In this document: in pieces, positions 43,201-64,000 of the stretch | How the letters are laid out: each line of letters starts with the position of its first letter | Position numbering within the stretch: position 1 is the first letter of the stretch | NCBI GenBank assembly: GCA_964016885.1 | Contig: OZ024740.1 | Coordinates: 156,364,001 to 156,428,000 of the forward strand | Direction: 5' to 3' | From: Eledone cirrhosa | Lineage: Eukaryota | Length of the DNA stretch: 64,000 nucleotides | The notes under the pieces: model-generated | The model's input: the letters and a program-made list of their open reading frames with translations, nothing else | What the model was told of the DNA's origin: nothing | Database searches by the model: none | Made by a program: the position numbers and the translations under genes

Positions 43201-44106
43201 CGTTGATTGTAATCCATCTATATCTATATCTTTCTGTATATATTAGATATAAGCACGTGCACACACACACACATTTGGAGAGAGAGAGAAGGTAAAGACA
43301 ATAGAGATTAGGATAAAGAAATATTAAAAACAGGGAGGGAGAATACGAAAGTAAAGGATAAAGCTAATTTTAAATTATGGACATTTTTTCCAGCTAAGTT
43401 ATCCCAAATTTTGTCTTCCATAAACAACCTTGTGCCACGAAGGGTAACTTTCTAGGCGCAAAACCCGTGCTCATTCGTGAACGGAGAGGGCCTTTTTCAC
43501 ACACACACACATATATATACATTTCACACGAACCCACATCATCCTCTTAAGCACACAAACACACACACACCCGTGCACATCTTCACATACACCCACACTC
43601 CATCCCACACCACCCTCTGATCCCGCACGATCTCCCCTTACCGCATCCGACCCTTTTCCATCCACATGCACACACACACAGACACTCATACAGGGACTAT
43701 ACACACACAGACATACACTCCACTCCAAACACACTCAATGGTTTTTCAAAACCTACAATCACATACACCCGCTCTCCCCCAGACTCTCACACTTACATCT
43801 ACGCATGCACACACACACACGTACATCTACACACACACACACACCTCACCTTCCGCCATCCCCGTTCGGACTCCATTTTTTCTTCCACATCTCTCTCTCA
43901 GCTCCACCCACCCCCAAGCACCACCACACCCGTGCCCTCCCGGATCCATACACCCCTTTCACTTTTTAATATTCTGTTTTTTTTTTTTTATTTTTTAGAA
44001 ACTTTTTTTACACTTCATGTTCCATTTTCAATTTATTTTTATTTCTATTTTTCTCGCTAACTGCTTCCCCCCTCCCATTGCTTCCTGGACCCCCCCCCCC
44101 CCCCCA

Positions 44107-44143
44107 CGCTCCTGATGAAGGGCTTATACCCGAAACGTCGCAA
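44107..44143 (+). ncRNA. Minimal type I hammerhead-like motif (Penelope pLTR type), stem I degenerate
   Basis: CTGATGA-A-GGG-CTTATA-CCC-GAAACGTC, with an ACGT palindrome as stem III. Confidence 0.55.
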
Positions 44144-45393
44144 CCACACCCCCACTCTCAATATTTGTAACATTTACTCCTGCGTATGCCTGTCTTTTAA
44201 AACATTATTTTCTGTTATTCCGAACTATATATATATATATACATATATGCACCTGGAATTTATTCAAGCTAAAAAAAAAAAAAAAAAAACTTTTATCATT
44301 AAAAGAATTTAAAGAAACAATCGAAAATGATTGGAACGTCAGCAGCTTGTCTGAAGATGGAACCCGGTAGGTGGGGTGGCTGTTGCAGTGGGTGTCGCTG
44401 GCCATTTGTCCGAAGAAATGCCTTTACAGCTTTGTCCACGGGGCGCAGCCCAAACATCGCCGCGCCCTACGCCCAGAGCCCATAACTCTCTCCCTTCGAC
44501 CCTTCTTTTCTTCTGTGGCTCTAGAGTTTTTGCTTTCTCCTTCCTTTTCTTCTCATTTAAGGCATTTATAATCGTTTCCTCTACTTTCCCATACAGCCAG
44601 CTCTGCCCTTCTTTACCCCTTCCCCTTTTTCTCATTACTTAATTTTGCTTTTATTTTTGTTTTTCATATGGTTTTTAAGCCAAATTTGTAAAAAATAAAC
44701 TATATTACTAAAATATTTCTAAAAATTTATACGAAATGTAAATTGAAAAATTTAAACGAAAAAAGTAGAAAACCGTTAGTTATACAAAAGTAAGGGGGGT
44801 AACTCATGCAGCATCACCTGAAAAGAATTTGCGTATCATTAAAAGGTATCATTGTATGACGTTCTAGATAACACATTTAAAAAAAAATTATTATTTAGTT
44901 TATAAGGATTAATTTTTCTGTAAGCATAAAATATAAACTAATTGATTAATACGTATTATTGAACAAGAAGATATCTTGGATAAGCGAAAACAAACACTAT
45001 GCTGCCAGAACATTTCGTTGAATAGTCTCCCCTTCATGGCTGCAACGCGAGATAAGATTTGTGGAATGAAAAATATATTCTTTTATCGTGATATTCTTTA
45101 ACTCGTTGACATCATTGGGACAACATGCTGGGGCACAACACAACCGTCAATATTGTAGTCAATCGAACTCATTTATTAACTTCCAGTCTTGCCTTTATTT
45201 AATCGACCGTCTCTAGTCGAAAGATCGGAGTTATCGATACAGTCTAAACACAACCCCATATTTATCGAACGATGTAAACATAGGCATTATGCACGCACAC
45301 ACACACAACACACACACGATTTAATGGCCGTTCTAGCGATGAATTTTCTCATTTTTATATGTTTATATATATATATATATATATATATATATA

Positions 45394-45650
45394 GTGGTAG
45401 AACACTGGTATAACCATGTCCATTACGAGTTGAGGATCCGCTAAGGTGAAACAATTGTTCTTGGTATGGTGAACTAACTGTTGTGTAACCACTTTCGACG
45501 GTTAACTCTGGAGTCCAGAATTAGCCGTCGAAACGGCTTGAGCTCTGCCGTCGGGGTCATACTTGTTCCTATTACCCACTCTAATACCCTAAGCATTGAG
45601 TACTTTGGTGCGTTATGGTCCATCTGGTTCCTTACCACATTTCCTTCGTT
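45394..45650 (+). mobile_element. (TA)n-flanked non-coding element with a hammerhead-like motif and a long hairpin
   Basis: The 3' half recurs at 58423-58543; hammerhead-like fold at 45420-45469; hairpin at 45493-45533. Confidence 0.7.
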
Positions 45651-45769
45651 ATATATATATATATATATATATATATATATATATATATATATATATATAT
45701 ATATATATATATATATATATATATATATATATATATATATATATATATATATATATATATATATTCTGT

Positions 45770-46492
45770 TATACATTTATATCATTAGATATTTATGTAT
45801 GTATATATATGTCATTCACCATTTTGTAATGATTAAATGCTCGGATTTATTCTTTTAATTTTTTCTTTGGGCTATTTTGGAAGGCAAAGACACATGTTCG
45901 AGATTATCTCAAACATGACATCTATAAATTTCAATATAATATATATAATATTTTAAAACTCCTACTTAGTTGAGTTGTTAATATGTTGAGAGGTTACACT
46001 GCTATGTCTAGTTGGCGTGAACGCATGTATGTCATTGCAGACGATGAGCGCGTGTGTTGGCCTTTTGATAATACCATGTACTTCTCTCGTCGTCTTCAGT
46101 TTTGTATGTTAGCCGTTGTAAGTTTATATAGATCGATTCCCTCACTGAACATCCATATCGATTATCTAACTGCACCGATATTTGGTGAAATGTATTCATG
46201 ATTTGTGAAGGATACATATGGGGGAAATATATATGATTTTTATCAGGTATCTATATTTTAAATTTTAATATGATACTGTAATGAACTATGTATTCTTACA
46301 TTCTATACACATTGTCTCTTGTTAAAGTTTGATATATCCTATTATACATGTATATCATTGGATTTTTATGTATGTATATATGTCAATCACTATTTTGTAA
46401 TGATTAAATGCTCGGATTTATTCTTTGAACTTTTTCTTTGAGCTTATTTTGGGAGATAAGACACATTATAGATGTCATGTTTGAGATTATAA
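45770..46492. repeat. Terminally redundant unit, period about 571 bp
   Basis: About 140 bp at 45770-45907 is repeated with divergence at 46345-46490. Confidence 0.75.
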
Positions 46493-46715
46493 TACACACA
46501 CACACACACACACACACACACACACACACACACACACACACACACACACACACACACACACACACACACACACACACACATATGTATATCGTCACCTAGG
46601 CATCACTTGCTAAAGGACAAGTATTTGGGATCTTTCAAATATAAAGGAATAAATGCAAAAATAAAATAAAATGAAATAAATAATGGAATTCTTGAGTGGA
46701 GTGACGTTCATTATA

Positions 46716-46903
46716 GGCGGTGGATTGGCAGTATTGGTAGAGGGTCGGACGCCATGCTTTGTAGCACAGTTACGTCCCTTTATGGTCTGAGTTCAAATCC
46801 CGCCGAGGTTAACTTTGCCTTTCATCCTTACGGGGTCGATAAAATAAAGTACCAGTAATACACTGGGATAATTCTGGCCTTGTGCCAAAAGTAGAAACAA
46901 TTA
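46716..46903 (+). mobile_element. Full-length tRNA-derived SINE
   Basis: A box TGGCAGTATTGG, B box GAGTTCAAATCC, family tail. Confidence 0.88.
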
Positions 46904-62230: not shown

Positions 62231-62311
62231 GCTGTTACCGACGGTTTCATCATTCCGAAAGATTGGAAATCCAACGAATCTCCAATGGAAAGAAATGAAT
62301 CTTCAGACAGC
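62231..62311 (-). ncRNA. Type I hammerhead ribozyme, array unit 2
   Basis: Same as unit 1, offset by 457 bp. Confidence 0.85.
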
Positions 62312-62687
62312 CCTATTTCCACGCTATAAGGTATAGCAAGTAAATATTATGCTCCCTGCCCAACGCATGCGGTCAAGCCGTTAAAGTGACACACACGCAA
62401 ATCAGGTCGCTGATAAAAGCTGGATATTATAAACATGTCGAATTGCCACTAAAATTAGCGGCATTATTCAACGTTTTGTTCTCTACGTAAGGAGAATAAA
62501 TTATAGAAGTGGATGGATACTTCAACAGGTACAATGTACTTGTAGAAATATTCAAGTTGTTTATAATACATATGGTTCAATGGCACTAATTCGAGATACC
62601 AGAACAATATAAAAGTAGCGAAACAAACGGTTATTAAACAATTTTCTAAATAAATTAAAAAATGATTAAATAATCACCTGTTCAGAT

Positions 62688-62768
62688 GCTGTTACCGACG
62701 GTTTCATCATTCCGAAAGATTGGAAATCCAACGAATCTCCAATGGAAAGAAATGAATCTTCAGACAGC
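62688..62768 (-). ncRNA. Type I hammerhead ribozyme, array unit 3
   Basis: Same as unit 1, offset by 914 bp. Confidence 0.85.
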
Positions 62769-63144
62769 CCTATTTCCACGCTATAAGGTATAGCAAGTAA
62801 ATATTATGCTCCCTGCCCAACGCATGCGGTCAAGCCGTTAAAGTGACACACACGCAAATCAGGTCGCTGATAAAAGCTGGATATTATAAACATGTCGAAT
62901 TGCCACTAAAATTAGCGGCATTATTCAACGTTTTGTTCTCTACGTAAGGAGAATAAATTATAGAAGTGGATGGATACTTCAACAGGTACAATGTACTTGT
63001 AGAAATATTCAAGTTGTTTATAATACATATGGTTCAATGGCACTAATTCGAGATACCAGAACAATATAAAAGTAGCGAAACAAACGGTTATTAAACAATT
63101 TTCTAAATAAATTAAAAAATGATTAAATAATCACCTGTTCAGAT

Positions 63145-63225
63145 GCTGTTACCGACGGTTTCATCATTCCGAAAGATTGGAAATCTAACGAATCTCCAAT
63201 GGAAAGAAATGAATCTTCAGACAGC
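63145..63225 (-). ncRNA. Type I hammerhead ribozyme, array unit 4
   Basis: Same as unit 1 with one substitution at the stem II apex (63186). Confidence 0.85.
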
Positions 63226-63601
63226 CCTATTTCCACGCTATAAGGTATAGCAAGTAAATATTATGCTCCCTGCCCAACGCATGCGGTCAAGCCGTTAAAG
63301 TGACACACACGCAAATCAGGTCGCTGATAAAAGCTGGATATTATAAACATGTCGAATTGCCACTAAAATTAGCGGCATTATTCAACGTTTTGTTCTCTAC
63401 GTAAGGAGAATACATTATAGAAGTGGATGGATACTTCAACAGGTACAATGTACTTGTAGAAATATTCAAGTTGTTTATAATACATATGGTTCAATGGCAC
63501 TAATTCGAGATACCAGAACAATATAAAAGTAGCGAAACAAACGGTTATTAAACAATTTTCTAAATAAATAAAAAAATGATTAAATAATCACCTGTTCAGA
63601 T

Positions 63602-63682
63602 GCTGTTACCGACGGTTTCATCATTCCGAAAGATTGGAAATCCAACGAATCTCCAATGGAAAGAAATGAATCTTCAGACAGC
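63602..63682 (-). ncRNA. Type I hammerhead ribozyme, array unit 5
   Basis: Same as unit 1, offset by 1828 bp. Confidence 0.85.
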
Positions 63683-64000
63683 CCTATTTCCACGCTATAA
63701 GGTATAGCAAGTAAATATTATGCTCCCTGCCCAACGCATGCGGTCAAGCCGTTAAAGTGACACACACGCAAATCAGGTCGCTGATAAAAGCTGGATATTA
63801 TAAACATGTCGAATTGCCACTAAAATTAGCGGCATTATTCAACGTTTTGTTCTCTACGTAAGGAGAATAAATTATAGAAGTGGATGGATACTTCAACAGG
63901 TACAATGTACTTGTAGAAATATTCAAGTTGTTTATAATACATATGGTTCAATGGCACTAATTCGAGATACCAGAACAATATAAAAGTAGCGAAACAAACG

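Follow-up and report, generated by a model that had tools for sequence, protein, structure and literature searches.

A stretch of 64,000 nucleotides from Eledone cirrhosa (GenBank assembly GCA_964016885.1, contig OZ024740.1, positions 156,364,001 to 156,428,000 of the forward strand; hereafter the window) carries six type I hammerhead ribozyme motifs between 44 and 64 kb. A preliminary description, made from the letters alone, had read these as a local cluster of non-autonomous ribozyme retroelements that prime on, or generate, (TA)n. All six motifs are present in the sequence, in repeat families that we call A to F and whose relation to Penelope-like elements (PLEs) is the subject of this analysis. 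The features are, with stem II closure given as its first base pair:

44030..44225, plus strand: family F, probable 3' end (pseudo-long terminal repeat, pLTR) of an old PLE family; core 44112-44139, start approximate
45394..45494, plus strand: family D1, putative stump of a Hydra-clade PLE; U-U hammerhead, core 45430-45459, C3U in this copy
45495..45650, plus strand: family D2, hammerhead-less fold-back with a fixed centre and two ends at (TA)n, assigned by comparison with the D2 family
45790..46490, plus strand: family E, older tandem unit with a period of ~571; U-U core 46145-46218, boundaries approximate
55224..55575, plus strand: family C, ~313-bp tandem unit, A-U closure; core 55410-55443, end 1, then (AT)n
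56057..56861, minus strand: family B, 1.5 copies of a 527-bp unit; C-A closure, long stem II, cores 56827-56757 and 56300-56230
58424..58542, plus strand: second D2 copy, truncated, flanked by two (TA)n runs, assigned by sequence comparison with D2
61653..61697, no strand: (TA)n target tract at the left end of array A, read from the sequence
61693..64000, minus strand: start of array A (family A), 457-bp unit; U-U closure, long stem II, first core 61849-61779

Cores are intact in C, in both copies of B and in the five copies of the 457-bp unit of array A that lie in the window, and these are the three insertions recovered with a strict descriptor (C at 55410; B at 56300 and 56827; array A from 61849), which gave no match in 30 shuffles of the 44-64 kb region. 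The D1 and E cores are altered (TTGAGGA and CTGAACA, respectively, with G8C and a 7-bp hairpin as stem III in E), and that of F is intact with an extra A after A9, the standard G-C closure, a single stem I pair and ACGT as stem III. Five of the six motifs are without the G10.1-C11.1 closure of stem II and have U-U (45430, 46145 and array A), C-A (B) or A-U (C), as the preliminary description had stated; it was equally right that the units are unrelated in sequence (no blastn similarity among them) and that the window holds no autonomous PLE open reading frame (ORF), since PLE protein queries matched nowhere in its 64 kb. At E≤5 an Rfam scan detected none of the hammerheads and returned miRNA noise driven by microsatellites. 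Two further generalizations hold in part: the 3' (AT)n end seen in nearly all units is found in four of the six copies, whereas the (AT)n at 45650 belongs to D2, fused to the D1 unit (motif at 45420), and the E unit (motif at 46142) runs into (AC)n at 46494; and the very short or palindromic stem III describes the minimal ACGT of F (motif at 44107) but not the hairpin of E. The D1 copy consists of a 15-nt inverted arm ending at what we define below as end 2 and a forward hammerhead arm ending at end 1, and the D2 copy fused to it has mostly lost its left arm. Family B ends at end 2, adjoining (TA)n at 55928-56056. Array A is 12.9 kb long in total, extends beyond the window to window-equivalent position 74639 and is built head to head, with a left arm of ~19 units terminating at end 1 and a right arm of 9 units plus a tail terminating at end 2, both adjoining (TA)n. 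Tracts comparable to that at its left end start at 44226, directly after F, and lie at 45356, 45650, 55575 and 55928. As side observations, a seventh, degenerate hammerhead lies at 41817 (minus strand) beside (TA)n at 41469-41599 and belongs to the family of a long array in locus L258 (genomic loci are numbered with L), and a further short repeat at 42305-42420 ends at (TA)n and has relatives in L085, L191 and L245, with an inverted arm in L085.

Hammerheads of this kind turned out to be common in the genome. Our sample comprised 59 evenly placed 10-kb blocks of large contigs (590 kb, or ~0.02% of 3.0 Gb, and only roughly proportional), and held 51 strict motifs, 15 of them in one array, against none in each of five shuffles. 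These correspond to 29 insertions in 25 blocks and, by eye, to ~19 families. From this sample 3.15 strict insertions are expected in 64 kb, and the window has three; the probability of at least three in 19.9 kb is 0.076, for a stretch picked after the fact. A relaxed descriptor was dropped, as it gave 89 matches against 10 and 4 in shuffles and missed the motifs at 44107 and 46142. The hammerheads are therefore real but common: with the density at the genome mean and hundreds to thousands of candidates elsewhere, the claim of a special cluster falls. That a local cluster has a function of its own, or that the motifs arose by chance, is hardly credible, despite the six motifs within 20 kb under the looser criteria of the preliminary description, because the strict motifs are absent from shuffled sequence and occur here at the genomic average. 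Extrapolation to 3 Gb gives ~147,000 insertions (range ~100,000-210,000, a Poisson interval on the count of 29 taken from tables) and ~259,000 motifs, and the latter, ~2.6e5, would exceed the 126,247 reported for axolotl (Cervera and de la Peña, 2020, PMC7229834). Among the 29 sampled insertions the closures are U-U in ten, A-U in seven, G-C in three and G-C with an extra base in two, the others being C-A (two), U-A (two), A-G, C-U and G-U (one each).

For each window family we scored 38-40 candidates and read the 30 top-scoring loci, which are best-matching and not random copies. First-look candidates numbered 1670 for A, 2618 for B, 3248 for C, 894 for D1, 441 for E, 632 for F and 3038 for D2. 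Among the scored copies, full units of A are mostly 99-100% identical, and identity is 76-96% in E and 69-92% in F. Families A, B, C and E are dispersed non-coding tandem units of 457, 527, ~313 and ~571 bp with one type I hammerhead each; in 30 loci each, E being examined least, no collinear PLE ORF was seen apart from one fusion (L186), and since they are without an ORF for reverse transcriptase (RT) and GIY-YIG endonuclease they look like non-autonomous, non-long terminal repeat retrozymes. The type I core (CUGANGA...GAAA...UH, three stems) is present in the window copies of A, B and C and, at the family level, in D1 and E: D1 cores read CTGAGGA in 29 of 46 cases and TTGAGGA in 13, and the relatives of E that were shown have CTGAAGA or CTGACGA, so that the window sequences of both are copy variants. 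The C-A closure of B recurs in 37/38 cores.

The remaining two motifs appear to belong to PLE 3' ends. Upstream of D1 a GIY-YIG ORF with CxCX5C, CxxC and CxH motifs is found in L195, L196, L209, L244, L314 and L315 (motifs read in the translation of L314 5912-6442), which makes D1 a PLE 3' end, probably of the Hydra clade, to which it is assigned from these motifs in partial ORFs. For F, its stem II and a downstream motif sit in the 3' untranslated region (UTR) of a Neptune-type GIY-YIG sister family in 7/20 loci, so that the motif at 44107 would likewise mark a PLE 3' end; no ORF of exactly family F was seen in 30 loci. We had also considered F as the pLTR of a Poseidon-like ORF in L185, and rejected this as that element has a 3' UTR of its own. 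The preliminary description had taken all units as non-autonomous, which appears to suit four of the six, and had allowed that they might all be solo pLTRs of known Penelope families, which appears to be so for two, D1 and F. In addition, D2 (45495-45650 and 58424-58542 in the window; L092-L120) is a very abundant 197-bp hammerhead-less fold-back whose arms covary by subfamily and which resembles a miniature inverted-repeat transposable element, yet bears PLE end signatures. A further short head-to-head element, family G (L226 7430-7730, L263, L276, L025), has its centre just 5' of a U-U hammerhead and a tail with a 10-nt motif in common with D2. Contigs of four sequencing runs (library type unrecorded) contain the queried unit and its tandem joint and are uninformative on expression; two runs, with a depth of ~3, were not used.

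Two fixed 3' ends, 5' truncation and head-to-head inversions characterize families A, B, C, D1 and D2, which thus show the PLE signature of 5' truncation, partial tandems, an inverted 5' copy and an optional tail. In A to D1 the spacing between the two ends is 31-113 nt, and they lie 36-190 nt downstream of the predicted cleavage site. A TA run of at least 6 nt adjoins 122/155 of their 3' ends (169/207 including D2), compared with 7.7% of random positions, and the nearest TA run is on the downstream side of 22/29 arms in the unbiased sample, in agreement with the proposed ribozyme retroelements tied with polarity to (TA)n. By eye, at least 3 nt of alternating UA follow 9/13 start sites. As for what the tract is, TA lies on the 5' side of 15/32 direct insertions of A, B and C, against the 7.7% background, and any dinucleotide repeat on that of 19/32, against 10.6%, a count that omits nine direct D1 rows because the D1 reference ended short. 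Some 3' ends adjoin (CT)n instead (L048, L194, L199, L281 and L283), and unit-to-unit junctions are free of TA runs. From TA at direct 5' flanks, (CT)n at some 3' ends and TA-free junctions it follows that (TA)n is mainly target and not product. Of the two activities in the preliminary description, priming on (TA)n is thus supported, and its generation is not.

The use of the two ends in inversions follows a rule. Among 57 head-to-head insertions of A to D1, 45 have a different end on each arm, two have the same end and ten were unclassifiable; by family, different ends are found in 3/4 (A), 16/16 (B), 9/10 (C) and 17/17 (D1), whereas independent choice of ends would allow at most 50%. D2 (25/25) was left out of this count because its query favours that structure; pooled with it, 70/72 have different ends (p=6e-19 against 0.5). 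The sample of B favours end 2, whereas the D1 and Neptune-type queries favour neither end. L006, one of the two exceptions, is flanked by identical sequence on both sides and could represent a larger duplication. Array A in the window follows the rule, as do 4/4 inversions of family G and 10/10 resolved inversions of autonomous PLEs (seven from a young Neptune-type family, two from a second Neptune-type family and one from a third clade), with two Neptune-type pairs left unresolved. That the same one-end-per-arm rule governs autonomous and non-coding families is structural evidence that the retrozymes use PLE machinery. Private, non-majority variants common to both arms are in excess in B (98 against 26 expected) and C (46 against 18), and uninformative in D1 (2 against 1); this sharing points to one source for the two arms of an inversion.

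The genome holds several PLE clades as candidate suppliers of such machinery. Through one match in the unbiased sample we found a young Neptune-type family (1213 candidates, 40 of them scored at about 100% identity). Its period is 4202 bp; it encodes ORF1 and, in a different frame, a 775-aa ORF2 with RT and GIY-YIG, its 3' UTR carries a U-U hammerhead, and its two ends lie at (TA)n. Full copies are 99.5-99.96% identical, as exemplified by L310 1130-5400 (G000:C2:216785000-216791500), whose ORF2 has a CX4CxxC linker, fitting the pattern CX2-5CxxC, before a C-terminal GIY-YIG domain with CCHH; its homologues carry PF00078, PF26215 and PF01541, and the eukaryotic names among them are bivalve proteins. 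The family is likely active, and its clade is assigned by motifs, without a tree. Separately, L181 815-3450 and L182 represent a young Neptune-type family of the same two-end TA architecture, with no hammerhead core found in the 3' UTR (L181). A partner for the retrozymes did not emerge by similarity: blastn of A, B, C and E against the available PLE 3' regions gave no match. In the 590-kb sample, a PLE endonuclease match (seven queries) lies within 1.2 kb upstream of only 2/51 motifs. The 3' UTR of the third PLE clade, used as a DNA query, had no match even though copies are known, which makes that search uninformative. Two junctions stand apart: in L186 3002-3640 (minus strand) unit B directly abuts the 3' UTR of an autonomous PLE, and at L025 2011 unit A is joined to family G by 4-nt microhomology. 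As template switches these two, and L001 and L073, are ambiguous.

We consider it likely that two of the window motifs are PLE 3' ends and that the other four belong to non-coding units copied by PLE RT-endonucleases into existing (TA)n by priming at two sites. A PLE protein dimer would cleave a TA tract on both strands, freeing two 3'-OH groups from which reverse transcription would begin within the RNA, at start site 1 for one and at start site 2 for its counterpart, with a few nucleotides of UA complementarity assisting; the two cDNAs would then be joined at their far ends, and each insertion would split one TA tract in two. More tentatively, in A, B, C and E the hammerheads would cut multimeric transcripts into monomers that circularize, those with a palindromic stem III acting as dimers, and rolling around the RNA circle would write the tandem arrays. 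The predicted circular monomers fold ~4-6 standard deviations below mononucleotide shuffles. In published biochemistry, a PLE of Anolis cuts both target strands and extends them, starting from two sites within the RNA that delimit a 'tail', and the protein is predicted to form a dimer (Frangieh et al., 2024, PMC11167929). For Hydra PLEs, insertion in (TA)n has been described (Craig et al., 2021, PMC8557442).

Several observations weigh against this mechanism or parts of it. Self-cleavage, circularization and expression of these units are predictions only, and just one of nine Xenopus retrozyme dimers cleaved in vitro (Li, Clavereau and Pollet, 2026, bioRxiv 10.64898/2026.07.22.740005). Inversion breakpoints do not clearly concentrate at the cleavage site, nor, for tailed arms, at site 1, so that cleaved linear RNA is not an evident template. 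The Anolis start sites in vitro are not homologous to the target (PMC11167929), unlike the UA matches here. End-sequence similarity of A, B, C and E to any one autonomous family is not significant (best p 0.007 of 171 pairs), and the apparent chimeras in L186 and L025 can also be read as target deletions. The loci read are the 30 top-scoring ones per family, with B biased to end 2, and the variants shared between arms could stem from later gene conversion. Finally, at unit position 108 of array A, next to end 2, T>G occurs in 6/28 units, on both arms and aperiodically, which a single circular template does not explain.

The last point touches the rival to which we give most weight, though less than even odds: the non-coding units may be copied from long linear uncleaved multimers, or expanded by unequal crossing-over, with the hammerhead largely a passenger. 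Besides the aperiodic variants shared within array A, this agrees with the Anolis experiments, in which hammerhead mutants were without effect on insertion and uncleaved RNA was the main substrate (PMC11167929), with the spread of hammerhead-less D2 and of the Neptune-type L181, in which no core was found, with the same kind of ends, and with the preference of Li et al. (2026) for local amplification (bioRxiv 10.64898/2026.07.22.740005); the first two of these also count against the cleavage and circularization part of the mechanism we favour. Yet within a family cores and closures mostly stay the same, and they are found again in ~19 unrelated ones, and the dispersed arrays are multimeric on both arms and 5'-truncated, as if the multimers were formed at insertion. 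Moreover, such a passenger role would replace the circle step only and leave PLE priming untouched. The inverted arm, for its part, could arise by self-priming or fold-back of one cDNA or be made on an antisense template, and the endonuclease would remove the tail of one arm, along the lines suggested for rotifer PLEs. Self-priming is a published model (Arkhipova et al., 2013, PMC3846280), the arms do share private variants, and in several junctions the breakpoints of the two arms almost coincide (e.g. L046, L048, L197, L210 and L218). What makes us regard it as improbable is that, by our own count, the tail-less (end-1) arm reaches further 5' than the tailed arm could template in 22/45 inversions, which excludes simple fold-back of one cDNA for those; arms overlap barely or not at all in L190, L204, L206 and L216; and array A has 19 units on the tail-less arm against 9 on the tailed one.

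A similarly poor prospect is that the (TA)n tail is made by the elements themselves, through slippage or in the manner of telomerase, and that they are a main source of the genomic TA load. Long TA runs do stand at 3' ends, (TA)≥5 runs make up 5% of the sampled bases, and 17/32 direct 5' flanks have no TA run. Set against this are the TA at the other 15 direct 5' ends, the (CT)n at some 3' ends and the lack of TA between units, as well as the numbers: the sample (L220-L278) contains 629 merged TA tracts, about one per kb, of which its 29 insertions could touch at most 58, with truncated and hammerhead-less copies adding more. Some TA expansion may nevertheless occur at priming.

All six units fall into published classes. 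A, B, C and E share with metazoan retrozymes (PMC7229834; Li et al., 2026), which the latter authors treat as non-autonomous PLEs, a tandem non-coding organization, a unit length of a few hundred bp, a single type I hammerhead per unit, low GC and co-occurrence with PLEs. Unlike them, stem II reaches ~50 nt and units 457-571 bp, and we found no sequence link to a named PLE pLTR; in contrast to published retrozymes, the units here also show two fixed ends, head-to-head inversions and a TA target, and the words 'inverted' and 'microsatellite' are absent from the main text of Cervera and de la Peña (2020). D1 shares with Hydra-clade PLEs (PMC8557442) a C-terminal GIY-YIG, a CxCX5C linker, CxxC before the E and CxH after the N, a 3' UTR hammerhead and insertion at (TA)n, and differs in its U-U closure. 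The young family and the sister family of F resemble the Neptune clade in RT with C-terminal GIY-YIG, a 3' UTR hammerhead and microsatellite targets, the young family also in its CX4CxxC linker, upstream ORF1 in another frame, tail and inverted pLTRs; its U-U closure is unlike that clade. The two internal RT start sites downstream of the hammerhead match those of Poseidon of Anolis (PMC11167929), and the tail on one of two inverted pLTRs matches the PLE 'tail' (PMC3846280); what differs is the 31-113 nt length of the tails, start sites that mostly have UA microhomology, and a one-site-per-arm rule that is counted (45/47 and 10/10) and extended to non-autonomous units.

The motif at 44107 resembles the minimal hammerheads of PLEs (Cervera and de la Peña, 2014, PMC4209133) in its extra base between 9 and 10.1, G10.1-C11.1 and palindromic minimal stem III. 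That closure is highly conserved in PMC4209133, whereas G-C closes 5/29 sampled insertions here. The U-U closure noted in the preliminary description is real and family-wide but already reported for axolotl: U-U at the base of stem II is known in HHR_Amex2, which is active and cleaves better as a dimer (PMC7229834). An Octopus repeat annotation lists recent Penelope families and, in the available text, never uses the word ribozyme (PMC13282606). Our literature search, with most subscription papers and all supplements outside its coverage, found nothing on cephalopod hammerheads or on a counted one-end-per-arm rule, and no paper on G10.1/C11.1 mismatches. What this genome adds is the sheer number of hammerheads, the predominance of mismatched closures among them, a PLE signature on retrozymes, an arm rule backed by counts, and an enzyme that is probably active.

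Elsewhere in the window the reverse transcriptases are LINE-like, and an integrase ORF is also present. By Pfam, the regions at 15048-18296, 24530-27991, 49237-51250 and 37049-39752 contain two long LINE-like ORFs, of 1082 aa (RT) and 1153 aa (endonuclease-RT), a broken endonuclease-RT element and a broken integrase element. A PLE remnant suspected at 46900-47700 was rejected, having neither Pfam support nor a match from PLE queries. At 59550-59609 (minus strand) a tRNA-like match at the Rfam gathering score is probably the head of a short interspersed nuclear element.

These results bear on two questions, the origin of the head-to-head inversions and one-sided tails of PLEs and whether PLEs mobilize animal retrozymes, and the near-strict one-end-per-arm rule argues against the fold-back model. 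The abundance of U-U and otherwise mismatched closures also means that standard descriptors and Rfam, which gave no matches here, can miss much of a hammerhead load. We give a little less than even chances to a broader proposal, that the natural hammerhead population of this genome would rank among the densest known, at about one insertion per 20 kb, mostly with non-canonical closure and together with a still-active enzyme and a still-active circular parasite, and that PLE integration is asymmetric twin priming. If so, both subunits of the dimer would roll many turns on RNA circles made by the hammerheads. Ready reagents exist side by side in one genome, namely an intact Neptune-type element with near-identical copies and a retrozyme whose units are 99-100% identical, and an active enzyme with a circular parasite would make the twin-priming reaction directly reconstitutable.

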